A stretch of 64,000 bases of DNA from Escherichia coli. Its GTDB lineage: Bacteria > Pseudomonadota > Gammaproteobacteria > Enterobacterales > Enterobacteriaceae. The notes under the pieces are model-generated. The model saw only the letters and a program-made list of their open reading frames with translations, searched no databases and was not told the origin of the DNA. Positions 5,860-44,712 of this stretch are shown piece by piece; within the stretch, counting starts at the first letter, position 1; the number at the start of each line of letters is the position of its first letter. Made by a program: the position numbers and the translations under genes. The stretch lies in assembly GCF_050320075.1 (NCBI RefSeq), contig NZ_CP190022.1, one strand, 5' to 3'.

Positions 5860-8580
5860 ATGAATGCCATTATTCCGCACAAAAGACGTGACGGCAGGTC
5901 TTCCTTTGAAGACCTGATTGCGTACACGTCTGTGCGGGATGATGTGCAGGAAAATGAGCTCACAGAAGACAGCGAAATCAAGAGTGATGTCCCTCACCGC
6001 AACCGTTTCAGACGGCTTGTTGATTATGCAACACGCCTGCGTAACGAAAAATTTGTCTCCCTGATTGATGTGATGAAAGACGGCAGTCAGTGGGTAAATT
6101 TCTATGGCGTAACCTGTTTCCATAACTGCAATTCACTGGAAACAGCTGCTGAAGAGATGCAGTACAAGGCGGACAAAGCTGTTTTTTCCCGTAATGATAC
6201 AGACCCCGTTTTCCACTACATTCTTTCCTGGCCTGCGCATGAAAGCCCGCGTCCTGAGCAGCTTTTTGACTGTGTGCGTCACACACTGAAATCTCTTGAA
6301 CTCTCAAAACATCAGTACGTGGCTGCCGTTCATACGGACACGGATAATCTGCATGTGCATGTTGCCGTGAATCGTGTACATCCTGAAACTGGTTATATTA
6401 ACTGGCTTTCCTGGAGCCAGGAAAAACTCAGTCGTGCATGCCGTGAACTTGAACTTAAGCACGGATTTGCGCCGGATAATGGCTGCTTTGTGCATGCACC
6501 CGGCAACCGTATTGTGCGCAAAACAGCGCTGGTACGTGAGCGCCGTAATGCCTGGCGACGCGGGAAAAAGCAGACGTTCAGGGAATATATTGCGCAGATG
6601 TCGATTGCCGGGCTGCGTGAAGAGCCCGCACAGGACTGGTTATCTTTGCATAAACGGCTGGCCAGTGATGGTCTGTATATCACGATGCAGGAAGGGGAAC
6701 TGGTGGTGAAGGATGGCTGGGACAGAGCGCGGGAAGGTGTTGCACTCAGTTCGTTCGGACCGTCATGGACAGCTGAAAAACTGGGGCGGAAACTGGGGGA
6801 ATATCAGCCTGTACCGACAGATATTTTCAGTCAGGTGGGGACACCCGGTCGTTATGATCCGGAAGCCATAAACGTGGATATCCGGCCGGAAAAAGTGGCA
6901 GAAACGGAGAGTCTGAAACAGTACGCCTGTCGTCACTTTGCTGAACGCTTACCGGAAATGGCGCGAAATGGTGAACTGAAAAGTTGCCTGGCTGTACACC
7001 GTACTCTGGCAGAGGCGGGATTATGGATGGGGATTCAGCACGGGCATCTGGTACTGCATGATGGATTTGATAAACAACAGACACCAGTACGTGCAGACAG
7101 TGTGTGGCCGTTAATGACGCTGGATTATATGCAGGATCTGGATGGTGGATGGCACTCTGTACCGAAGGATATTTTTACTCAGGTTATACCCGAAGAACGA
7201 TTCCGGGGACACAGTATTGGCACTCAGGCTGTCAGCGATTACGAATGGTATCGCATGAGGATGGGCACTGGTCCACAGGGTGCCATAAAGCGTGAACTGT
7301 TTTCCGATAAGGAAAGTCTGTGGGGATACGCTCTTATTCAGTGCAGGAGCCAGATTGAAGAGATGATAGCTGGCGGGGATTTCAGCTGGCAGGCATGTCA
7401 TGAGATGTTTGCGCGTAAAGGGCTTATGCTGCAGAAACAGCATCATGGTCTCGTGATTGTGGATGCGTTTAATCATGAACTGACACCGGTGAAGGCCAGC
7501 AGTATCCACCCGGATTTGACGTTATCCCGGGCCGAGCCTCAGGCCGGGCCATTTGAAATTGCGGCTGCAGATATTTTCGAACGGGTGAAGCCTGAATGTC
7601 GCTACAATCCGGAACTTGCTGCCAGTGATGAAGTGGAGCCCGGCTTCCGGCGCGATCCTGAGCTGCGTCGTGAGCGCCGTGAAGCCCGTGCAGCTGCGCG
7701 GGAAGATTTGCGTGCGCGTTATCTTGCATGGAAGGAACACTGGCGTAAACCCGATTTACGTTACGGCGAACGGTTGCGGGAAATTCATGCTGCCTGCCGT
7801 CGTCGCAAGGCTCATATCCGCGTGCAGTTCCGGGATCCACAATTGCGTAAACTGCATTACCATATTGCAGAAGTGCAACGTATGCAGGCGCTGATCAGAC
7901 TGAAGGAAAATGTCAGGGAAGAGCGACTGGCGCTGATGGCGGAGGGTAAGTGGTATCCGTTGTCCTACCGGCAGTGGGTGGAACAACAGGCGGCGCAAGG
8001 CGACAGAGCTGCAGTGTCACAGCTCCGAGGCTGGGATTATCGCGATCGTCGCTCGCGTAATAAGGATAAAAGACGCACAACTAATGCTGATCGTTGTGTC
8101 GTTCTCTGCGAACCCGGAGGAACGCCACTTTTTAATAATGTTGCAAAACTTGAAGCTCGTCTTCAGAAAAATGGAAGTGTTCATTTCAGGGATACGCGGA
8201 CAGGAAAAAATGTCTGTACGGATTACGGAGATCGGGTTGTGTTCTACCATCACACGGACCGAAATGAACTGGCAGAGAAGCTTGATTTAATTGCGCCAGT
8301 TCTGTTCAGCCGCAACGGAAAGCTTGGTTTTGAGCCGGAAGGTTCATACCAGCAGTTTAATGATGTGTTTGCAGAAATGGTGGCCTGGCACAATGCAGCG
8401 GGAATAACCGGAAACGGACACTTCACCATTACTCGTCCGGACGTGGATTTGCACCGTCAACGCAGTGAGCAGTATTACCGGGAATATATCAGACAGCAGA
8501 CCCGTTTATCGGAGAGCCATGATGATAATTATACGTTACGGCAGGAGAAAACATGGGAGCCACCATCACCTGGAATGTAA
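5860..8580 (+). CDS. nikB: NikB relaxase (MOBP family)
   Basis: 906 aa, start MNAIIPHKRRDG; relaxase His motif region HTDTDNLHVHVAVNRV; size and position as in R64. Confidence 0.85.
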   Translation: MNAIIPHKRRDGRSSFEDLIAYTSVRDDVQENELTEDSEIKSDVPHRNRFRRLVDYATRLRNEKFVSLIDVMKDGSQWVNFYGVTCFHNCNSLETAAEEMQYKADKAVFSRNDTDPVFHYILSWPAHESPRPEQLFDCVRHTLKSLELSKHQYVAAVHTDTDNLHVHVAVNRVHPETGYINWLSWSQEKLSRACRELELKHGFAPDNGCFVHAPGNRIVRKTALVRERRNAWRRGKKQTFREYIAQMSIAGLREEPAQDWLSLHKRLASDGLYITMQEGELVVKDGWDRAREGVALSSFGPSWTAEKLGRKLGEYQPVPTDIFSQVGTPGRYDPEAINVDIRPEKVAETESLKQYACRHFAERLPEMARNGELKSCLAVHRTLAEAGLWMGIQHGHLVLHDGFDKQQTPVRADSVWPLMTLDYMQDLDGGWHSVPKDIFTQVIPEERFRGHSIGTQAVSDYEWYRMRMGTGPQGAIKRELFSDKESLWGYALIQCRSQIEEMIAGGDFSWQACHEMFARKGLMLQKQHHGLVIVDAFNHELTPVKASSIHPDLTLSRAEPQAGPFEIAAADIFERVKPECRYNPELAASDEVEPGFRRDPELRRERREARAAAREDLRARYLAWKEHWRKPDLRYGERLREIHAACRRRKAHIRVQFRDPQLRKLHYHIAEVQRMQALIRLKENVREERLALMAEGKWYPLSYRQWVEQQAAQGDRAAVSQLRGWDYRDRRSRNKDKRRTTNADRCVVLCEPGGTPLFNNVAKLEARLQKNGSVHFRDTRTGKNVCTDYGDRVVFYHHTDRNELAEKLDLIAPVLFSRNGKLGFEPEGSYQQFNDVFAEMVAWHNAAGITGNGHFTITRPDVDLHRQRSEQYYREYIRQQTRLSESHDDNYTLRQEKTWEPPSPGM

Positions 8581-15109: not shown

Positions 15110-15733
15110 ATGCAGGAACATATTGATTATCAGATTGAGAAATATCAGTTCAGGGCCAGGAATGAGTCTCCGCGACTGATGCGCCAGTGGGCAGATGTCA
15201 TGCGTGAATGCCGTGATACCGGAGCAGGAGCCAGGGAGCGGCTGCGGATTGCCTTACTTAATGTTGATTATGTGACCAGTTTTGAGCTGCCGTTTCGTCT
15301 GCTGTTAACCCGGACACCGCAGATGATTGACAGCATGCGGCGGGAATGGCAGCTCAGCCAGAAAAAAGTCGTCTTCAATGAGCGGCAGCGGGGATGTGTA
15401 TACAGTCTGCAGAATGACTTATCCGGCGTGCCGGATAGCTTCAGTTACAGTCTTGCGACGCGAATACGGCGGATGGACTGCTATGGCATGACGACGCGTT
15501 GTTTTACTGATATCGCCGGGCAGGTTAAAGCCCCGACGGCACGGCTGAAACTAGCGCTGGAAAGCGGGTTGCTGGTAACGGCACTGGATGGCCTGTTCTG
15601 GCTGGGAACTCAGCGAATTGCAGCTGATGTGCAGAGACTGCGTCAGTCAGGTATGGTTATAGTCACCCGGGAAGTTGAGGTATCAGACTCCCTGACCGGA
15701 ACCACCAGACTGGTTTCTGCCTACACACTTTAA
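15110..15733 (+). CDS. Hypothetical protein (207 aa)
   Basis: Divergent from nuc across an AT-rich promoter region; no family recognised. Confidence 0.5.
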   Translation: MQEHIDYQIEKYQFRARNESPRLMRQWADVMRECRDTGAGARERLRIALLNVDYVTSFELPFRLLLTRTPQMIDSMRREWQLSQKKVVFNERQRGCVYSLQNDLSGVPDSFSYSLATRIRRMDCYGMTTRCFTDIAGQVKAPTARLKLALESGLLVTALDGLFWLGTQRIAADVQRLRQSGMVIVTREVEVSDSLTGTTRLVSAYTL

Positions 15734-23893: not shown

Positions 23894-24471
23894 TCTTTTT
23901 TCTCCGTTTTCGGGGGATACAGGATGTCTGGTACGCGATGACTGAGTGATTCCGGCAGCGGAGCCAGCGGGAAACACTGGAAGCGGCGCGTGATCCATCC
24001 CTGACGGTTACGGTTATCGATGAGCGTGAAGGTACGACGCTTCACGCGTTTCAGTGTCGGGGTGTCGCTTTCCATGACCGGCCAGTCTCCGGCTGTGAGT
24101 GCCGGTGTGCCGGGGACATCCGGCCACAGCCAGGTGTTGTCAGACATCAGCGCCGTGAGAGGCGAGGGCAGAAGCCAGTGAATGACATGCTGTATATCAA
24201 AAGGCGGTCGCTCCGGCACGTTAACCTGCCAGGTGGCCGTTGTTATCAGCGTGCCTGTCTCTCCGGGCAGGGCCAGGCGAATACCACTCATCTCCCCGTC
24301 AGCCCGTCTGTCACTGGCAAAAATGACCCGGGGATTGGGGGACGGTCGCAGTGTGAAGCAGGCGGACGGCAGGGTGAAGCTGAAACTGTCACCGTCCACG
24401 CGCAGCGTTTTCAGGAAGACCTGTCCCCGTGCAGGACGCCGGCAGCGGGGAGTGATGTGTATGCTGTACAT
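23854..24471 (-). CDS. traV: TraV
   Basis: 205 aa between traW and traU; named by synteny. Confidence 0.5.
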   Translation of the reverse strand: MYSIHITPRCRRPARGQVFLKTLRVDGDSFSFTLPSACFTLRPSPNPRVIFASDRRADGEMSGIRLALPGETGTLITTATWQVNVPERPPFDIQHVIHWLLPSPLTALMSDNTWLWPDVPGTPALTAGDWPVMESDTPTLKRVKRRTFTLIDNRNRQGWITRRFQCFPLAPLPESLSHRVPDILYPPKTEKKECKDNLQPHCLHS

Positions 24472-27400
24472 CAGAGGTGATATCCCTGCTTACGGATGAG
24501 TTCCGCAGCCAGATCATGGATGACGTTTTCACTGTCATGTGTACGGGCGCGGTGTTCTATCAGTGAGGTGGCTGAACCACGGGGAAAGTTTTCTGCCAGG
24601 ATCTGGCGTGCCCGCAGTGACCCGAGCTCCTGCGTCAGCGCACGTCTCAGGGCGCTGTCTTTGGGTGAGGAATTCAGAGCCCACAGCTCCAGTGGACCGA
24701 GAGTGAATTTCAGGATCCGGGCCAGCGTACCGTTTTTTACACGGAACACAGCCAGTACCGGGACACCGCTGCCATCCGGTGCAGCCCCTTCCGGCATTTT
24801 CAGAAAGCGCCGCAGGGTGACTTCAGGGACACCAAAATTATCCCGCAGAAACGGAATTTCGTCAGGGCGGTAACGCAGCAACCAGAGGGTGTTGGCGGAT
24901 TTGAGAACTGCCGGTGGATAGTCCTGCAGTAGCTGGGTGCTCAGCACTGTGCGTATCCCGAACTTACGCTGCTCCAGCTCCTGGGTGTCCAGGGCTTCCC
25001 AGATGAAGTTGATCCCTTTTGCATTGTGCAGTTCGTCATAGACTTTGGTCTTGACCTCCTGATCAAGCTGTTCAATGCGGCGGAAAATCACCTCATGGTA
25101 GCGTGGGTCGAGATTTTTCCGTATTTCCTCCTGATACTGCGGCAGGACAAAATCCCCGCCGGCGATTTGTCCTGCCAGCAGGTACATGATGCCGGTGCGC
25201 AGACGCCCGGCAGGTGTCTTGTCACCGGCCACATTGTTCAGATCAACGGCCACAACGCGGGTGTCGGGGCTGAGCATAAACCGGGTACAGCCGGACATCA
25301 TCGGGTAGTCACTGTGTCCCTGATCGAGGGCACGGCGGATGTAGTCCAGTAACAATTCTGCTGAGTTATCGCGCTGAACTGTGCCGAACACATCCCGGAT
25401 GGATGGCTGTCCCAGCAGGGCGGACATTTCAGCCAGCAGGGGCATGGCCTGGTAGTGTGCCCGCTGGGCTGCGGGGATATTGCCAGCCATATGCAGCATG
25501 TCCCTGATTTCAAACCAGGTGGCAGCATTCCACCATCCAGCGTCATGTTGTTCTGCGATGCCACTCTCTTCCAGGGCGAGATCCACAAGGGGCTCTGTTC
25601 CTGCACGGTACAGTCTGGGGTTGTTTTCGCCATACTCCCTGAAGGCCAGATCCACCAGGTTGCTTATGATTTGCCGGGTGTCACCGGGATTACAGGGCTG
25701 ACCGGTGCCGGTATCCACGCACAGTGCGCAGAGTACAGATACCATGAAGTTCTTTTCCGGGGTGGCGGGTTTTTTAGCACCGTACATCACATCAAACAGG
25801 TTACGGGTGTGTTCCGGATCATTGCTCAGAATGATCCCCACGGCTTCGTCCTTTCTCTGCTCCGGCAGGCTGTCACGGATAAGCTGTACCAGTCCCTGTG
25901 CACTGAATCCCTTGTCGATATAGGCAATGAAAGGCAGGTTCTTCTGGGCTGAGGCTATCTGGATCTCCGACAGTGCGTTGATGAGTACCGATTTGCCCAG
26001 ACCGGGTGCGCCGGGCGTCAGTTCCGTGTGCTTGTTCTGTTGTGACGATGCCAGTGCGACCTCCCATGCAGAGCCGTCCTCGGTGTGCATCATCAGATTT
26101 CCCTGTCCCCGCCAGACAGAGCCTGCCCTGTTCAGGGGAAACAGGGAAAGGGCGTGTGAAAGGGGCGGGTAAAGGGGGACTGGACCGGAACCGTGGGAGG
26201 CTGCCAGAACCGTGTTCACCCAGGCACGTCTCGGATCACCGAAGGTGGTGGTGGTGCCGCATACCCCCCAGCCTTCCAGCGCAGATTTCAGGAGAGCCTG
26301 GTTACGGGTACAGACTTCCCGGCTGTTTCCCCATGTGGTGGCAACAATGGTCATGATACAGACCGGATCATGTTTGTTGATGTCATTCAGCATCATCACC
26401 GAGTCATACATGGGCCGGAGAGGGGAAATAAAGCTGCTGTAGGTCAGCAGGGTTTTCTTGACCCCAAGCGCCTTCATGCCGCCGGGCATCAGATCCATCC
26501 GGATACGCCAGGGGATTGCGCGGGGCACATCCCTGACCAGCTGGTTGAATGTCCGCAGATTCTGGGGGGGCAGGGTAATGGCGACCATACCGTGCCAGAG
26601 GTCACCGGCCTTTATCAGGCTGCCGTGTGTTTCAGGCTGTGTGGTGAATAACTGCAGATTCAGCGACGGTGCGTGGAATACAGAGGTATCCTCGCCCTGT
26701 CGCCAGCCGGCAGGACGGGCATCTTCAGGCAGATGAGGCTGCCATACTGCAGGTGTGCTGTTGCGCTCCAGTTGACGGCGGATTTCCCGTCCCACTTCAT
26801 GAATATCTATCAGGCGAACCAGCAGACCATCAGAATCATGTGTCAGGGCCTGCTCCAGCGTGTCCAGAAAGGCGTCATGCCGTATTTTGAGTGCGGAAAG
26901 TGTCCAGCGCCATGGATCCTGCGCAAATCGGGCTGGCGGAGCGTGTTCAGCGAGTTTCCTGATACGGGTCTGGTGGTCCTTGCGATCGGTCCGGCTCAGC
27001 AGTTCTTCAGAGCTCCAGACGGTCAGCCAGCAGCGTTCCCGGACAAGCCAGGGGGTGAGCGTGGTGACTTTTTCATCCAGAACGTCCTGAAGCAGGATCC
27101 CCGTGCGTGCGATGGATTTTCGCTGGGGTAAGAGCATGGCTTCGATTTCATCCCTTCCACGCTCCGGATCGCGTTCGAAAACAAAACTGATTTTGTGACC
27201 GATGTTTTTCCAGGCAGTGTTCATTCGCTCTGCCAGCGCTGTAATCAGTGATTCCAGTGTGCCGGGGGCTGTCAGGTCCGGGTTTTCATCCATTTCTTTC
27301 AGGGCACCGCTGATTTCAAAGACGGAAAGGTAATACCCCTGTTTGGTGGTGGCAATGTAGGGGGCTTTCAGCCAGGGGCGGCGTTCGCGGTCCTGCTGGT

Positions 27401-27527
27401 CCAGACCGATGACGGTGTGCAGATCACAGTAATCGGGGAAGAATGCGGAAACGGAATACCGTGACAGGGTACTGATACAGTCTTCAATGGCAAAAATAAT
27501 GCGGTTGATATTCATGGCATGGAGCAC
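24471..27527 (-). CDS. traU: TraU, DotO/IcmB-like ATPase
   Basis: 1018 aa; Walker A LTPGAPGLGKSVLIN. Confidence 0.8.
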   Translation of the reverse strand: MLHAMNINRIIFAIEDCISTLSRYSVSAFFPDYCDLHTVIGLDQQDRERRPWLKAPYIATTKQGYYLSVFEISGALKEMDENPDLTAPGTLESLITALAERMNTAWKNIGHKISFVFERDPERGRDEIEAMLLPQRKSIARTGILLQDVLDEKVTTLTPWLVRERCWLTVWSSEELLSRTDRKDHQTRIRKLAEHAPPARFAQDPWRWTLSALKIRHDAFLDTLEQALTHDSDGLLVRLIDIHEVGREIRRQLERNSTPAVWQPHLPEDARPAGWRQGEDTSVFHAPSLNLQLFTTQPETHGSLIKAGDLWHGMVAITLPPQNLRTFNQLVRDVPRAIPWRIRMDLMPGGMKALGVKKTLLTYSSFISPLRPMYDSVMMLNDINKHDPVCIMTIVATTWGNSREVCTRNQALLKSALEGWGVCGTTTTFGDPRRAWVNTVLAASHGSGPVPLYPPLSHALSLFPLNRAGSVWRGQGNLMMHTEDGSAWEVALASSQQNKHTELTPGAPGLGKSVLINALSEIQIASAQKNLPFIAYIDKGFSAQGLVQLIRDSLPEQRKDEAVGIILSNDPEHTRNLFDVMYGAKKPATPEKNFMVSVLCALCVDTGTGQPCNPGDTRQIISNLVDLAFREYGENNPRLYRAGTEPLVDLALEESGIAEQHDAGWWNAATWFEIRDMLHMAGNIPAAQRAHYQAMPLLAEMSALLGQPSIRDVFGTVQRDNSAELLLDYIRRALDQGHSDYPMMSGCTRFMLSPDTRVVAVDLNNVAGDKTPAGRLRTGIMYLLAGQIAGGDFVLPQYQEEIRKNLDPRYHEVIFRRIEQLDQEVKTKVYDELHNAKGINFIWEALDTQELEQRKFGIRTVLSTQLLQDYPPAVLKSANTLWLLRYRPDEIPFLRDNFGVPEVTLRRFLKMPEGAAPDGSGVPVLAVFRVKNGTLARILKFTLGPLELWALNSSPKDSALRRALTQELGSLRARQILAENFPRGSATSLIEHRARTHDSENVIHDLAAELIRKQGYHL

Positions 27528-27690
27528 TCCGGTAAGGATGAATCATCACGGTCTGATATTTTTTGATGCCACAGCAGGGGATGTGGCATGAAAAAACAGC
27601 AGAGAAAATAAATAATCTGTTGAGGGGCAGGTGCGTATTTCTGTGTGATTACAGTAAATAATAAAAATGTAATAAGGTGGAAACACGCTG

Positions 27691-28074
27691 TCAGCGTAGT
27701 GAATTTACTGGCGGATAAGTGATTTTATTAATATGTACAACAATAGATTTTCTTCTTTTATTTTGTATAAATACCGGTGGGACATAAAAGAAACGGAGAC
27801 TGCAGAGACAGAGATGCAGTTGTTTTCCCCGTTTCCTTAATGAAAATTCAGTCAGGGGTGTGGCCGGATAATTATGCCGGGCGCTTAATTCCCTGTTGAA
27901 CTGAAGTATTCCGGCAATATTCAGCAGTATGCCGGCCAGCCTGCCGTCATCATCCCGAAGGAACCGACGGAGTAGCCGGTGCTCTTCTTTGGCGGTACTG
28001 TCAGCTTTTCCGGCCAGGTGTGCGAGGATGAGTGTTATAAGCGTCTCCGGGGATATGCGGTGAATTTTCATCAT
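27691..28074 (-). CDS. Hypothetical protein (127 aa) between traT and traU
   Basis: ATGA start/stop overlap with the upstream ORF and aggagaag RBS; C-terminal 40 codons run into an AT-rich stretch. Confidence 0.4.
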   Translation of the reverse strand: MMKIHRISPETLITLILAHLAGKADSTAKEEHRLLRRFLRDDDGRLAGILLNIAGILQFNRELSARHNYPATPLTEFSLRKRGKQLHLCLCSLRFFYVPPVFIQNKRRKSIVVHINKITYPPVNSLR

Positions 28075-28430
28075 TCTTCTCCTGATTTTGTCGGGGGTAC
28101 ACCCGGATAAATAAACTGCTGGCGGCGAATGAAAAAATCACAGAAGGGCATATCCGGTAATTCCGGGAGACCGGATACGGCAATATCCATCCATGAGAGA
28201 TAGTTATCGACACTCACTGTGACGGTGATGCTGTTATGGGTACGGGATCTTTCATGAATTTCTGCAGCCAGAAAGAGCAGCCAGCCGCCGTTAAATGCCG
28301 GGTGGCGGAGAATGAACCGGGCAATTTCTTTTTCATCTCCGTCAGGCGGAATATTGTCAGTCAGCGTCCGTATAATAAAACGCCGGAATGAATCTGCAGT
28401 GAACTGATATCCGGCAGAGTGTGTATCCAT
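28071..28430 (-). CDS. Hypothetical protein (119 aa) between traT and traU
   Basis: Translationally coupled to the next ORF; no family recognised. Confidence 0.45.
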   Translation of the reverse strand: MDTHSAGYQFTADSFRRFIIRTLTDNIPPDGDEKEIARFILRHPAFNGGWLLFLAAEIHERSRTHNSITVTVSVDNYLSWMDIAVSGLPELPDMPFCDFFIRRQQFIYPGVPPTKSGEE

Positions 28431-28497
28431 TTTTGTTCCTCTGTAAGTTGAATGTGTGCCGGCAGAATGTCATCGGTACCGGTGTGGGAGGGCTGCA

Positions 28498-29316
28498 TCA
28501 CCAGACGAACTCCCTGTCAGGAAACGAATCCGGCAGCAGAATGAGCGCCACCCCGTCCATTTTCTCCCTCAACGTTTTACGCTGTGCCGGCGGCCAGCGG
28601 CGCAGTGCATCAGCAAAATCCGCCGGACGCCAGGTGCGAAATTTCTCCTCAACGGCCAGGCGGTTCTGTACCAGGGCATTCAGTACGGCCCGTCCCTGTC
28701 TGACTCGCTTACGCTCATCGCTGAAAATTTCCTTCAGTGCCCGTGCATTGAGAGCAACTACCGAGGCCGGATGCAAATCAGGGAGCCAGACCATCACCCC
28801 CTGTGCGGCAGCGTAGCCGTTCAGGCAGTGCCAGGCGTGGCAGAAGACACAGAGATGAAAGGGCGGGCCTTCCGGCTGCAGCAGTTCACTTTCATTTTCG
28901 CTGAGTGCATCTGTTGTGACGATTTGTGACTTTTCCACATGACGCAGGGCCAGTCGCCTGGCCGACAGGCGGGCCTGTGCCAGGGACCGCTCCGCATCCT
29001 GCAGGGTTCGGGTGTGTTTCTTTTTTTCGTCAGCGTTTTCCGGTACCGGATGTTTTTTCAGGCGCATCACCCGGGTGAGGTTTTTTTCCAGCAGGACGAC
29101 CGTATCCCGGCAGGTGTCAGCCATCTGCTGTAATGGCCATGAATCCTCCAGAATGAAGCGGTGAGTGACGGTCCTGCGACAGCAGGGACAGCGTCCGGGT
29201 GTTGAGAGCACGGGTGGTGGCAGCAGGGATTCACCGCTGAATACCGTGTCCGGTTGCGGGAGCGGGAAAAGCCAGCGTTCCCGGGCCGGGGCGATGAGTG
29301 GCGGTGTTTTGTTCAT
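28498..29316 (-). CDS. traT: TraT, Cys-rich DotN/IcmJ-like protein
   Basis: 272 aa; Cys clusters PGRCPCCRR and HLCVFCHAWHC; position before traU matches icmJ-icmB order. Confidence 0.55.
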   Translation of the reverse strand: MNKTPPLIAPARERWLFPLPQPDTVFSGESLLPPPVLSTPGRCPCCRRTVTHRFILEDSWPLQQMADTCRDTVVLLEKNLTRVMRLKKHPVPENADEKKKHTRTLQDAERSLAQARLSARRLALRHVEKSQIVTTDALSENESELLQPEGPPFHLCVFCHAWHCLNGYAAAQGVMVWLPDLHPASVVALNARALKEIFSDERKRVRQGRAVLNALVQNRLAVEEKFRTWRPADFADALRRWPPAQRKTLREKMDGVALILLPDSFPDREFVW

Positions 29317-29482
29317 ACGTTTTTCTCTCTGTATACAGGGTGACGGCAGCCAGAATCAGTGCTGCGATGGCGGTGGAATAACATTCTGCAAACACAAACT
29401 CCTGATTATCCCGGTTGTCGCGGGCAATCACGTTGCCGTGCTCTGTTCTGAGCAGGGTGAAAGGGGGCAGCTCACAGGACAT
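29231..29482 (-). CDS. TraS-like small protein (83 aa)
   Basis: Internal Met MSCELPPF with gaagagga RBS; overlaps the traT start by about 85 nt. Confidence 0.3.
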   Translation of the reverse strand: MSCELPPFTLLRTEHGNVIARDNRDNQEFVFAECYSTAIAALILAAVTLYTERKTYEQNTATHRPGPGTLAFPAPATGHGIQR

Positions 29483-29538
29483 GGTCTGGTCCTCTTCATT
29501 GTGTGAAGACGGCACCGGGAAACCGGTGCCGTTGTGGA

Positions 29539-40175: not shown

Positions 40176-40995
40176 TTTTCTCTCCTTCGGTGCTGACAAG
40201 AGGGCGCCAGCGCGATTTCTGCAGCGTAAATTCAGCATGTGTTTTCAGGCGGCGGACGCGATCGCCAGTGATGAGTTTTTGCCCGTTGCCGGTAACCGTC
40301 TGCATCTGCTCTGTGACATCTGGACGTGTGATCATGCCCTGACGCCACAGAAGGGCGTAAAGCATCATGCCCCGGTAATCACGGGTCAGGCGCTTCTGAT
40401 TAGCTTCCAGTGTGAGATCTGCGTTGAGGCGCCCTTCCTGCCATCCCTGACGTAAGGCGTTTTCCCATAGTCTGCGTTGTGCCCGGTCTTCCGGCACAAC
40501 CCGGCCTTCAGTGCCTGGTGTGGCGGTGGTTGAGAGTCCTTTCAGCAGCCAGTCACGCCATCCAGGAGGATTACTGACAAAGCGTTCCGGGCGGAGGATA
40601 GTCCAGACACGGGAGGCTGTTCTTATCTGGTCCGGTCTGATGTGTGCAACATCCTGCGCTTCATCGATAACAGGAGGCAGCCAGCCTTCCTTGCTGATGA
40701 GAGGCCGGAAATCATACAGGGCATTCAGGGTACTTTCCCGGGCATTCAGTGCCTGAATCAGTTCCCATGAGCGCTGTGCTTTTCCACCACGGAATCCCAG
40801 CGTTCTGCCGGCATCCGTGAGCATCTGACGACGGGTATCTGAAATACCATCATCCTGGTTGCCGGAGGGCGTCAGCCATGCACGGATATCCGGGGGCGGT
40901 GCGTTTTCTGTCATGACGGCAGAAGAACGGTGATGCTGTCCGGCACAGCCTGTAAGCAGGAGAGCAGACAGCAGGAGACACAGGTGTGTTTTCAT
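40159..40995 (-). CDS. traI: TraI lipoprotein (DotC-like)
   Basis: 278 aa; lipobox LLTGC. Confidence 0.6.
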   Translation of the reverse strand: MKTHLCLLLSALLLTGCAGQHHRSSAVMTENAPPPDIRAWLTPSGNQDDGISDTRRQMLTDAGRTLGFRGGKAQRSWELIQALNARESTLNALYDFRPLISKEGWLPPVIDEAQDVAHIRPDQIRTASRVWTILRPERFVSNPPGWRDWLLKGLSTTATPGTEGRVVPEDRAQRRLWENALRQGWQEGRLNADLTLEANQKRLTRDYRGMMLYALLWRQGMITRPDVTEQMQTVTGNGQKLITGDRVRRLKTHAEFTLQKSRWRPLVSTEGEKNDITR

Positions 40996-41444
40996 TTTTT
41001 CTCCGGCGTCATAAAAGACAGATGTAAACGCCCGGCTGACTGCGAGAGTGTTGCCCGCCAGGCAGTCTGGGCTTCAGTGAGACGAAGGACATCAGCAAAG
41101 GTCATGTCGCGGACGTGCAGTGAGACGGGTAAGGGGAGACGGACGCCGCTGTAGCTGAACTGCTGGCCGCGCAGACGGGCCAGTTCGTTGAGCAATTCCA
41201 GGGCATCGCCTTCCCAGTCAAAGGAAACACGGTCGCTGTGAGCCTTCAGACTGCCGCCGGACTGACGCTCCGGAAGGGCTGCAGAGTAAATTCCCTGCCC
41301 CCATAGCTGATACTGCGCATGCCGGGCGACGGCGACATCAGAGGCAGCACCATACTTTCTGGTCGGAGCTGTATTATCCGGGGGGAGATGGCAGCCGTTC
41401 AGGCAGAGTACGGCGAGACATCCCGCAGGTATCATACGGTTCAT
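40992..41444 (-). CDS. traH: TraH lipoprotein (DotD-like)
   Basis: 150 aa; lipobox CLNGC; lipoprotein-lipoprotein-ATPase order mirrors dotD-dotC-dotB. Confidence 0.55.
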   Translation of the reverse strand: MNRMIPAGCLAVLCLNGCHLPPDNTAPTRKYGAASDVAVARHAQYQLWGQGIYSAALPERQSGGSLKAHSDRVSFDWEGDALELLNELARLRGQQFSYSGVRLPLPVSLHVRDMTFADVLRLTEAQTAWRATLSQSAGRLHLSFMTPEKK

Positions 41445-41492: not shown

Positions 41493-41663
41493 TTACTGGT
41501 TCGTGTTTTTGCTGAATGGCTGGAACACCTCAGAGGGTGACAGTGCTACCCGGATACAAATATCGTTTGCTATCACGATATTACATTCGTTAGCTGTCGG
41601 ATCCCGGAACGGTTCCACCATAAAGGCTTTGTTTTCGATATGCGTTTTATTTTTGTTAAACAT
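41493..41663 (-). CDS. Small hypothetical protein (about 56 aa)
   Basis: Short ORF between the FadL-like gene and traH. Confidence 0.25.
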   Translation of the reverse strand: MFNKNKTHIENKAFMVEPFRDPTANECNIVIANDICIRVALSPSEVFQPFSKNTNQ

Positions 41664-41802
41664 GCATTTCCTCATGCGAAAATGATATGTCAGATAACAG
41701 CCAGATCAGAGGCAGCACTACAGGTCTGGCTGTGTCGTTTGATGGTCGGAAAACGCGAGGATGCAGGTCTGGATACCCCGGTCAGTACCGGGGCAGAGAT
41801 GA

Positions 41803-43005
41803 TCAGAATGTGAACTGCAGTTGTGCAACGGCACCGTAGTTGTTGTCTGTGCCTGCTATACCCGCCACATCAATATGGACGACATCAAATGGTGAGATAC
41901 CCAGCCCGGCGGTGAACGCACTGTCATCATTGCTGGCCAGATTCTGGCGGTAGCCTGCACGTAACTGTGCCCATTTCCAGGCATTAAATTCAGCACCAAT
42001 GGCAGCAAACTGACGTTTACTGTCTGATGTGAAGCCACTGGCCGGGGTCAGGTCAACATCCAGTGCTGTAGTGAACATGTCGTTGTGCCAGGAGACACCG
42101 GCAGTCACCTGCGGGCGGATCCTGAAAGTTTCAGTGACACCATGTACCTCTTTGGTCTCAATGCTGCGTGGGATCAGGTTCTGTGCGACCAGACCCAGCG
42201 TCCAGTTGTCATCCAGGTCCATGCTGGCACCGATATCAGCGTTAATACCGTTTTGGGTGTTGTGGTAACGGTTACCTTTGAATGCGCTGCTGTCATAGTT
42301 TTTGATCAGCGTATTGTAGTTAAACAGGTCAACACGCTGGAATTTTGGTGTGAAGCCCAGTGACCATTTTTGTCCGGCCGTTTCCAGTTCAGTGGCCAGC
42401 GCAACGCCCACATCGGTGATCAGTGCGGCACGGGCAAAAGCCTGTGAGGTCAGTCTGTTTTTATCCACATCCTGGCTGCCACTGTCTGCAATGCTTTCCA
42501 GATAGTTCAGGTCGGCATCGCTGACTTTACCGTCGACGCTGACAGTCCCGAACGTTTTCAGCATCAGTGCAGCAGCGAGGGTATCACCGGGAAGGGCCGC
42601 CACAGCAGATGTTCCCACCTGTGCGTCAGCATGCGTGTGACGGAAGTCCTGAAGTCGCGTCTTCAGACGTGCAGCAGTCTGCGACACGTTGCTCTGACTG
42701 TCGATGGCACGATCAAAGGCTTTCCAGTCATCGCTGATTTTGTCGGCGTTGTCGGCGATATTACCCGGATCGGACAGCTGCGCACCCACGGACGGAAGCA
42801 GAAGACTGAAGTCATCTTTTGCACCGGATTTTGTCAGCAGTGCCGGGTTTGCCAGTGGGGCCACACCATAGTGAGAGGAGGCTACCCCGGTTCCCCCCAT
42901 TGCATCATTGCGGGCTTCAAAATATGAAGTTGCGGCTGTTGAATTAAAGGAAAATAAAACAGCAGATGCGATGAGAGTTCGGGTAATGTGCATATTCATC
43001 ATCAT
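41803..43005 (-). CDS. FadL/OmpP1-family outer membrane beta-barrel protein
   Basis: Signal peptide MMMNMHITRTLIASAVLFSFNSTAA; N-terminal NPALL motif; C-terminal ...AVAQLQFTF ending in Phe. Confidence 0.55.
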   Translation of the reverse strand: MMMNMHITRTLIASAVLFSFNSTAATSYFEARNDAMGGTGVASSHYGVAPLANPALLTKSGAKDDFSLLLPSVGAQLSDPGNIADNADKISDDWKAFDRAIDSQSNVSQTAARLKTRLQDFRHTHADAQVGTSAVAALPGDTLAAALMLKTFGTVSVDGKVSDADLNYLESIADSGSQDVDKNRLTSQAFARAALITDVGVALATELETAGQKWSLGFTPKFQRVDLFNYNTLIKNYDSSAFKGNRYHNTQNGINADIGASMDLDDNWTLGLVAQNLIPRSIETKEVHGVTETFRIRPQVTAGVSWHNDMFTTALDVDLTPASGFTSDSKRQFAAIGAEFNAWKWAQLRAGYRQNLASNDDSAFTAGLGISPFDVVHIDVAGIAGTDNNYGAVAQLQFTF

Positions 43006-43094
43006 TTCAGTTTCCTGGTTTGAGGTGTTTTGGGTACAGCAACGGTATGACACGACTGTGCCATTAAAAATTTACTGGTTTTTTCTCTGCGTTA

Positions 43095-43916
43095 TTACCA
43101 GGGTAATAACGGTATACTGAATAACTCAGCAGGTAATATTTTTCCTGTCATCAGATATTCTGCCTGTGCCGGACGAAGCGTTACGGTCCGGACGGATGTC
43201 TTTGCATATAAATTGCGGGCAGTGTGAAACCAGTTTTCTTTTTCCTTATTCATTCTTACAGGTGATAAAGAAAGTACAGGATAAATGATGGCTTTATTAA
43301 TTTCTTTTTTCTTGCGGAACAGTACACCGCAATATTCCTGTGAATGAACACCGGCAAAAGGAAAACTGTGCCAGATAATAATATCCACATTATCGCTGGC
43401 TGAAATAAGCTGGCAGAACGCATCCTGTGTTGCTGGCCACTCACCGGCACGGCTTAAAGGATAACGTACCCTGCCGTTCAGCCATTCCGGGTTGAGATAA
43501 AACCAGTCAGCCAGAGCAGTCAGAATCTCTCCTGTCAGATAATCTGCGAGTTTGTCCGGGTCACGGAAAACGGCAGGACGGATATTCCAGGGAGCCAGTA
43601 ACGTTGTCATCGTTGTTACGCAGACATCATGTGCCTGCATGATGTGTTCTGTCCGGCAGATAAGACGGTGAACGATGTTTTCAGCCGGGAGAAACATTTC
43701 AGTTAATGCATCTTCGACCAGGATACGCGTCAGGTCGGATACAGAAAGGGAGAGTTGCTCGCTCATTATTCCGAGTGCTTCTCTGACGCCCTGCGGATAA
43801 CGGATCTGCAGGGGAGTGGACTGCAACTGGCGGTTATTGAGCAGAGCTTCGCTAATCCGGGCCCTGTCAATGGAGAGCATCATGCGGGCAGCAATGCCTG
43901 TGCTGTTTGGTTTCAT
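43095..43916 (-). CDS. Hypothetical protein (273 aa), tra region
   Basis: ORF in the traE-traG position; no family recognised. Confidence 0.45.
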   Translation of the reverse strand: MKPNSTGIAARMMLSIDRARISEALLNNRQLQSTPLQIRYPQGVREALGIMSEQLSLSVSDLTRILVEDALTEMFLPAENIVHRLICRTEHIMQAHDVCVTTMTTLLAPWNIRPAVFRDPDKLADYLTGEILTALADWFYLNPEWLNGRVRYPLSRAGEWPATQDAFCQLISASDNVDIIIWHSFPFAGVHSQEYCGVLFRKKKEINKAIIYPVLSLSPVRMNKEKENWFHTARNLYAKTSVRTVTLRPAQAEYLMTGKILPAELFSIPLLPW

Positions 43917-44166
43917 TTCACCTCCGTGCGGTTCATATGTTAAGTCTAAAGAGCGTGTTTACTGAACGGAAACGAGTTATTTCGATCGTTATGATCGAGT
44001 GTGTTTCAAGAGTGCTTTTAACTCTGTTTTAAGCGTGAATGAAAAGGATTCGGACAGGACGTGATTTAGCATGCCGCTGGTCTGGCATTATGCTGCAGAG
44101 CAGACGGAGTCAGGAGATTGAAGGGCGGTACAGTCTGCGAAGACTGGACACGGGGTGTGTCGGGAA

Positions 44167-44712
44167 TTAACGCACGTGAGGCGTAATGAGAACGACGCGT
44201 TTTTCGCTAGCTCCACCTCCGGCGAATCCATTCATGACAAGGGACTGTTCCGGTCTGAGAGAAATGCTCTGCTCAACAGTCTGGTTTCGTTTCTGGTCTG
44301 TGGTCGAGAGTCGCAGAGTGATATTGCCCCCCTTAATATCCGGCGATATCTGCATTCTGACATCGGGGGATACATCAGCAGTAAAGGCATCCGGACCTAC
44401 GGATGTTACCTGTGATTCAACACAGGACGTATTCTGCATCATCCCGTGGAGCGTTTCAGGTGTCAGCGTCAGGCTGTCATTAAAAAAAGCACTGTGTGAA
44501 ATGACCCCCTGAGCATCGGCAAACAGGTCCGGATGGCGCTCATTAAGAAGGCTTCCGTATTTTTCCGCCAGGCAGATTGGGTTGCTGGCCGTTGTGTCTG
44601 TTCGCACGGTATCGACCGTGAATGTCACCTGCGGGTGATGTTCCCTGTGGCCTGTGCAGCCGGACAGCAGTGCGGCGGCTATCGTCATCCAGAGTAGTGG
44701 TTGTTTTTTCAT
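44167..44712 (-). CDS. Lipoprotein (181 aa)
   Basis: MKKQPLLWMTIAAALLSGCTGH signal peptide with lipobox LSGC. Confidence 0.5.
   Translation of the reverse strand: MKKQPLLWMTIAAALLSGCTGHREHHPQVTFTVDTVRTDTTASNPICLAEKYGSLLNERHPDLFADAQGVISHSAFFNDSLTLTPETLHGMMQNTSCVESQVTSVGPDAFTADVSPDVRMQISPDIKGGNITLRLSTTDQKRNQTVEQSISLRPEQSLVMNGFAGGGASEKRVVLITPHVR

Follow-up and report, generated by a model that had tools for sequence, protein, structure and literature searches.

Two paralogous small genes between traT and traU of an IncK2/Z plasmid behave as a variable cassette in I-type transfer operons

The interval between traT and traU of an IncK2/Z plasmid carries two small genes, ORF1 and ORF2, that are absent from the reference plasmid R64, and our comparisons show that the pair behaves as a lower-GC two-gene cassette in the variable traR–traU slot of the I-type (MPF_I, Dot/Icm-like) operon. 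Both ORFs are real genes under purifying selection and distant, ancient paralogs of one another, and the two proteins probably form, as judged from structure prediction, a pseudo-symmetric 1:1 heterodimer of orphan fold. The window analyzed, a 64,000-nt stretch of plasmid DNA, carries the transfer operon on its minus strand, to which all window coordinates below refer.

Across the traT–traU stretch, the window is 100% identical to pL889_NDM9, a conjugative IncK2/Z plasmid, and to about ten further plasmids. The genes follow the order traT, a 67-bp leader, ORF1, ORF2, 175 bp of non-coding DNA and traU. The cassette is anchored upstream, outside its own limits, by traT (28498-29316; 272 aa) and downstream by traU (24471-27515; 1014 aa), which encodes a VirB4/DotO-type ATPase. 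The 272-aa product is 60% identical to R64 TraT (266 aa) over 260 aa and is labelled ‘conjugal transfer protein TraT’ in the annotation of pL889_NDM9, and the window TraU matches its R64 counterpart at 78% identity over the full length, starting from MNINR. The traU start is most likely the R64-like ATG at 27515 (MNINR), which makes the gap before the gene 175 bp and not the 160 bp first reported. In R64 (NC_005014), the interval from traT to traU measures just 89 bp and contains a hairpin but no ORF. This ORF-free gap, together with the TraT and TraU matches, indicates that the gene names are correct and that ORF1 and ORF2 are extra, as the initial annotation had held with respect to both R64 and the icmJ–icmB order of Dot/Icm systems. 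That annotation had allowed for IncI1 reference plasmids carrying the same two ORFs under the names TraS and TraT, which would have shifted its assignments; the R64 interval is empty, R64 traS sits upstream of traT, and R64 traS and traT correspond to the 84-aa and 272-aa ORFs of the window. A search of the PLSDB plasmid collection found no ORF1 or ORF2 homologs on R64-type backbones. TraT itself had no match in Pfam, NCBIfam or the PDB sequences, and its putative DotN-like identity follows published comparisons of R64 with Dot/Icm. The traS-like small ORF (29231-29515; 84 aa in RefSeq for pL889_NDM9) overlaps the 5’-end of traT by about 85 nt, while a shorter traT (627 nt) without this overlap is annotated in L012, L013 and pMS7163B; with two start choices among plasmids, the annotation of the traT start is inconsistent.

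ORF1 (28071-28430; 119 aa; RefSeq WP_053287752.1) and ORF2 (27691-28071; 126 aa; RefSeq WP_058100843.1) are both present in databases as hypothetical proteins. ORF1 is preceded by the traT–ORF1 leader (28431-28497; 67 bp), which belongs to the cassette and holds the ribosome-binding site GAGGAA at about 28436-28441. The coupling junction AGGAGAAGAATGATG (28069-28083) combines the ribosome-binding site of ORF2, the TGA of ORF1 (28071-28073) and an ORF2 start at either 28071 or 28074; it reads AGGAGAAGAATGATGAAA, and the ORF1 TGA overlaps both candidate ORF2 ATGs (as ATGA or TGATG). We confirmed the 119-aa ORF, the ATGA overlap and the ‘aggagaag’ site (28076-28083) that had been described from the sequence, and the combination of a stop/start overlap with a ribosome-binding site at the junction is an arrangement suited to translational coupling, as had been proposed. 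The 127-aa version of ORF2 (27691-28074) does exist as a reading frame from the first ATG, but RefSeq and all homologs begin at the second ATG (MKIHR..., 28071, 126 aa), which is also better spaced from the ribosome-binding site than the first (28074). The ORF1 stop and ORF2 start overlap in four of the six diverged lineages described below, and in the remaining two 22 and 58 nt intervene. The unrelated backbone L008 has a leader resembling that of the window (CACAyATTC...ACAGAGGAA) ahead of ORF1. Some variants have an ORF1 annotation that is longer by about 20 residues (L011 2172-2591; L013 2172-2597) and overlaps the traT stop. A 9-bp indel directly past that stop (alignment columns 104-112) may contribute to the longer calls, and the conserved start is the shorter one with the GAGGAA site.

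Three lines of evidence show that the ORFs are genuine genes: their substitution patterns, their annotation in hundreds of plasmids and their recurrence as a pair in diverged plasmids. Full-length copies of ORF2 were found in 228 PLSDB plasmids and of ORF1 in 174. Among variants at 93-99% DNA identity, dN/dS was 0.10-0.54 for ORF1 and mostly 0.3-0.5 for ORF2 where substitutions suffice for counting; ORF2 values reached 0.97 only in pairs with eight or fewer substitutions. Protein searches of 5.8 billion and 1.8 billion sequences recovered only a small family, in which the ORF1 homologs (27-65% identity) have the same operon context. Six diverged I-type transfer operons contain the two genes side by side and in constant order, and every diverged member with readable context lies inside an I-type tra operon, co-oriented and next to its partner. 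These include a Salmonella plasmid contig (L007; 46-48% identity to the window), a second E. coli backbone (L008/L009; 61-65%), an assembly whose traT–traU flank matches Pantoea/Erwinia plasmids (L015; about 30-33%) and metagenome or read-assembly contigs with the pair in the tra operon (L016-L018). The true end of ORF2 had been regarded as uncertain, its C-terminus being translated from AT-rich sequence. This doubt is largely resolved: in homologs at 28-60% identity the C-terminus is conserved to about residue 115 (FFxxP...N..K.I.....), where the linked structural model described below places a β-strand, and only the last ten or so residues vary. No relative turned up in a pattern scan across 100,044 species-representative genomes. 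A 356-aa repeat protein (P0058) recovered at E 2.5e-8 in the representative search was rejected as a low-complexity false positive, and two ORFs of 107 and 111 aa that precede the pair in L015 proved not to be additional paralogs. One 157-aa E. coli protein (P0015) is a natural fusion in which the first two-thirds of ORF1 continue in frame into the C-terminal half of ORF2, apparently generated by deletion between paralogous segments (SWMDIA / NIAGILQ).

The traT–traU interval is polymorphic among the plasmids compared. The window and about 174 PLSDB plasmids have the intact pair, and pTA142-2 has the pair with an opposite-strand 181-aa ORF in place of the spacer. The IncK2 lineage carries ISEcp1-blaCMY-2-blc-sugE in the 5’-end of ORF1, leaving codons for aa 32-119, an insertion that was reported as ‘between traT and traU’ (PMC5350095). 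A further state has an IS66-family insertion. About 218 IncB/O-type plasmids, for example pMB9108_2, retain a 294-bp scar that consists of ORF1 codons 5-43, an 18-bp piece and the traU leader, and in which the traT–ORF1 leader is deleted; one of the scar deletions is flanked by the 14-nt direct repeat TGGCGG(C/A)GAATGAA. About 54 plasmids combine an intact ORF2 with an ORF1 that has a truncation at aa 32 or a frameshift. On the L008-type backbone, 20 of 22 relatives are without the pair, and comparison of L008 with L019 shows that presence and absence are cleanly delimited, with the boundary lying past the traR hairpin and before the following start codon. The pair is often lost.

The composition and position of the pair also differ from those of its neighbors. 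GC3 is 0.47 in ORF1 and 0.44 in ORF2, compared to 0.62-0.66 in traO, traP, traQ, traT and traU and 0.55 in traR. Between the window and L008, identity is 65% for ORF1 and 61% for ORF2, compared to 55% for TraU and 38% for TraT; between the window and L007 it is 48% and 46% for the ORFs, compared to 75% for TraU and 58% for TraT. The pair follows traT in the window and L007 and precedes it in L008 and L015. The lower GC3, the clean intergenic boundaries and the backbone-discordant identities together show that the pair has moved between plasmid backbones.

The slot and its surroundings hold other genes in relatives. The 181-aa AT-rich ORF of pTA142-2 (WP_001369268.1; L003 1841-2386, opposite to tra) occurs in about 30 other plasmids and overlaps the last ORF2 codons; its sole match was a weak one (E 3e-4) to the phage family phrog_13493, of unknown function. 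The L007 slot additionally contains two AT-rich ORFs of no known family, one for a 142-aa hydrophobic protein (6889-7317) and one for a 196-aa protein (7452-8042), and the 196-aa protein has in common with a 173-aa ORF upstream of ORF1 in L018 (15-536) the motif WPD..IT.HDVLWFLPL.RL, as judged by eye. L020 has two unrelated reverse-strand ORFs at the place of the pair. A gene for a PLD-family (nuc-like) nuclease lies between traR and traT in L008 (6801-7337) and L019 (3069-3605); the PLD-family gene of R64 is flanked by traK and by the large LPD7-domain gene at the sog position. A Phd/YefM-PIN toxin-antitoxin pair occurs between traU and traW of L008 (11196-11881), the position of traV in R64, and traV is apparently missing from the L008 backbone.

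The region upstream of traU had been described as a 160-bp AT-rich stretch. A non-coding gap does exist, but it has the 175-bp length given above and a GC content of 0.41, and the AT-richness belongs mostly to the 3’-end of ORF2 and a short junction. The AT-rich tract (27653-27816) covers ORF2 codons 86-126 and 38 bp past the stop; the last 41 codons have a GC content of 0.34 (GC3 0.24) and the 38 bp a GC content of 0.29, compared to 0.45 in the traU-proximal 137 bp. The tract acts as a recombination junction where variants diverge, and pTA142-2 departs from the window sequence within the last eight ORF2 codons. The remaining 137 bp form a conserved traU leader (27516-27652), which is near-identical in the IncB/O-type plasmid pMB9108_2, where the ORFs are missing. 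It contains a long hairpin with arms of 22 nt each (27552-27573 and 27582-27603) and an 8-nt loop, the best inverted repeat of the region, and the spacer RNA folds more stably than shuffled sequences (z = -4.0). The hairpin is preceded by a T-run and followed by an A-run. Because no T-run follows the stem, the structure does not qualify as a canonical terminator; it may serve the processing or stability of the traU transcript. A comparable hairpin with another stem sequence directly follows the traT stop in R64 (L006 ~15465-15508), and the traU-leader hairpin is absent from L003 (pTA142-2) and L018. An Rfam search of the spacer returned only rliB, at 20 bits compared to a gathering score of 40 (E 0.19), and a terminator scan of the spacer gave nothing better than shuffled sequence. 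An internal promoter in the spacer is not supported by the sequence: the scan found four sigma-70-like matches compared to 1.7 ± 1.4 in shuffles, including a 9/12 match at 27666-27694, which falls in sequence missing from the IncB/O-type plasmids. A consensus scan of the 67-bp traT–ORF1 leader, of a kind that cannot exclude a promoter, found no promoter-like site.

The two proteins differ sharply in charge. ORF1 is acidic (pI 5.3) and predicted to be cytoplasmic, and ORF2 is strongly basic (pI 10.7, net +13); ORF1 is acidic in five of the six lineages and ORF2 carries a net charge of +7 to +13 in all six. No membrane segments were predicted in either protein, and neither had a significant match in Pfam, NCBIfam, PADLOC, PHROG or the PDB sequences. 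BLASTP of ORF1 against ORF2 returned nothing. Comparison of an ORF1 profile with an ORF2 profile (hhalign) gave 91% probability and E 1e-6 over 92 columns, with the common motif core F-[IL]-x-R ... G-x-L-L, so the paralogy is visible only by profile–profile comparison.

AlphaFold modeled ORF2 alone at a pLDDT of 64. We also modeled ORF1 and ORF2 joined by a 30-residue Gly-Ser linker, as ORF1-(GGGGS)6-ORF2, from nine paired sequences; all alignments were shallow (9-12 sequences). The linked AF2 model reached a pLDDT of 75.8 and a pTM of 0.76 despite 47 disordered residues, and ORF2 blocks rose to about 85 compared to 64 alone, a gain that may stem partly from three extra diverged sequences in the second alignment. 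Both halves of the linked model have the order β-α-α-α-β-β-β, consistent with the pseudo-symmetric heterodimer predicted above. Structure-based searches of the AFDB with the models gave no credible relative for either protein. Weak but repeated PD-(D/E)XK nuclease matches of the ORF2 monomer model (E 0.2-1.5, TM ~0.2) were dismissed for their poor scores and because they vanished with the better model, and weak STAS, RsbW and PSP1 matches were dismissed on the same grounds.

We tentatively propose, at somewhat under even confidence, that the pair encodes an accessory heterodimer that is co-expressed with the secretion system and acts at its cytoplasmic side. Since no promoter or terminator of its own was detected, the pair would be transcribed with the tra operon, and the two proteins would be made in step with the secretion machinery. 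They would then form a 1:1 pseudo-symmetric cytoplasmic heterodimer serving as a non-essential helper at the cytoplasmic side of the transfer apparatus, most likely in a form in which the acidic partner holds a basic cargo or nucleic-acid-binding subunit. Such a complex would be a functional analogue, not a homolog, of the small adaptor or chaperone pairs of type IV secretion. A more specific version is unlikely: that the pair represents a new orphan-fold family of paralogous heterodimers working at the cytoplasmic face of I-type conjugation machines, either as an adaptor on the coupling complex of TraT, TrbC and TrbA or as a chaperone with a basic protein that is injected into recipients.

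The closest parallel in the Dot/Icm systems is IcmS–IcmW of the Legionella type IVB coupling complex, whose proteins are likewise small, cytoplasmic and encoded among Dot/Icm-like genes and do not belong to the channel; ORF1 and ORF2 adjoin the putatively DotN-like traT, and a heterodimer is predicted for them. IcmS and IcmW are both acidic, unlike the strongly basic ORF2, and ORF1 and ORF2 are, unlike them, dispensable and patchy among conjugative plasmids. We detected no sequence or fold similarity of ORF1 or ORF2 to IcmS, IcmW or LvgA. The idea of a held cargo is modeled on VirE1–VirE2 of Agrobacterium, a small acidic chaperone with a basic, translocated DNA-binding substrate, whose adjacent genes are also co-expressed with a type IV secretion system and also pair an acidic with a basic partner. 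ORF1 and ORF2 differ in being equal-sized paralogs, and no homology to VirE1 or VirE2 was found. R64 traS and nuc are precedents for small or accessory genes within the tra operon, and both are non-essential for R64 transfer (PMC4288162; PMC6112013); unlike these, ORF1 and ORF2 are absent from R64, and they are not homologous to TraS or Nuc. The traR–traU stretch differs in IncM plasmids too, with orf38 in place of traST (PMC6112013).

Several observations weigh against the accessory-heterodimer proposal. Selfish or cargo genes would account equally well for the mobility, the low GC and the frequent loss, the intact ORF2 in the roughly 54 ORF1-broken plasmids is odd for an obligate heterodimer, and the slot also takes unrelated cargo (the PLD nuclease, the resistance transposon and IS66). 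The pair might accordingly be generic cargo, for example a donor-protective or anti-phage/anti-defence pair, in an insertion-tolerant, transcribed traR–traU slot, an explanation that we regard as possible but doubtful. It draws on the low GC3, the patchy distribution with repeated loss and the backbone-incongruent identities, and on the variety of other occupants in relatives: ISEcp1-blaCMY-2-blc-sugE, IS66, the opposite-strand 181-aa ORF, the 142-aa and 196-aa ORFs of L007, the two reverse-strand ORFs of L020 and the PLD nuclease. However, neither PADLOC defence models nor PHROG gave a match, none was found in phage genomes, and all of the approximately six diverged lineages were found in I-type tra operons, co-oriented, and never elsewhere. 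Such exclusive placement is not expected of free-roaming cargo.

A type II toxin-antitoxin module, with the antitoxin encoded by ORF1 and the toxin by ORF2 or vice versa, is distinctly improbable. The pair resembles such cassettes in its coupled layout of two small ORFs, the acidic first and the basic second, and in its cassette-like mobility, low GC and patchy distribution, and the Phd/PIN pair of L008 is a bona fide module within a tra operon. The two proteins are, however, paralogs of the same predicted fold, unlike the usual toxin-antitoxin construction, and they have neither a toxin or antitoxin family match in Pfam, NCBIfam or PADLOC nor a convincing promoter of their own. ORF2 is also tolerated without ORF1 in the approximately 54 plasmids noted above, including the successful IncK2-CMY-2 lineage, so that ORF1 cannot be an antitoxin needed to restrain an active ORF2 toxin; the reverse order is untouched by this argument.

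That the pair is an overlooked core component of I-type secretion, required here and functionally replaced in R64, is very improbable and largely refuted: its conserved place beside traT/traU in several diverged systems and the purifying selection on both genes would fit, but near-identical backbones conjugate without it, and 20 of 22 L008-type plasmids do not have it. A core MPF_I or type IVB component would be universal and required, and the pair is absent from R64, pMS7163B and L019-type plasmids and has ORF1 disrupted in IncK2-CMY-2. Plasmid pMS7163B, the I-complex plasmid used in a conjugation transposon-sequencing screen (PMC10286972), has only the 294-bp scar (traT 40581-41207, traU 41502-44546), and IncK2-CMY-2 plasmids, in which we found ORF1 broken, gave transconjugants (PMC5350095). 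The repeated loss or breakage of the pair in plasmids that still conjugate means that it is dispensable for conjugation, at least in standard matings.

In the literature searched, we found no published experiments on the pair itself, no account of the paralogy, predicted heterodimer or orphan fold, and none of the restriction to I-type tra operons, the cassette dynamics or the IncB/O-type deletion scar. The pair is unnamed and unstudied because it is missing from the textbook plasmid R64. The transfer genes of the I-complex have been interpreted almost entirely through R64, whose gene list falls short for much of the group: ORF2 is present in at least 228 sequenced plasmids, and a decayed remnant of the pair in about 218 more. 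The sole functional screen of a non-R64 I-complex plasmid found in the literature searched used a plasmid without the pair. The CMY-2, CTX-M and NDM resistance genes are disseminated on IncK2/Z, IncK1 and related I-complex plasmids. If the pair is merely cargo, the traR–traU interval would be a hot spot in which genes, including blaCMY-2, ride in an essential operon without breaking it. If it modulates transfer, for instance by affecting host range, the transfer of proteins or the cost to the donor, the pair would offer a new handle on plasmid spread. A role as coupling-complex adaptor or as chaperone with an injected protein, if true, would have been overlooked because the model plasmids R64 and pMS7163B lost the pair, and it would alter what these resistance plasmids transfer in nature or how well they do so.
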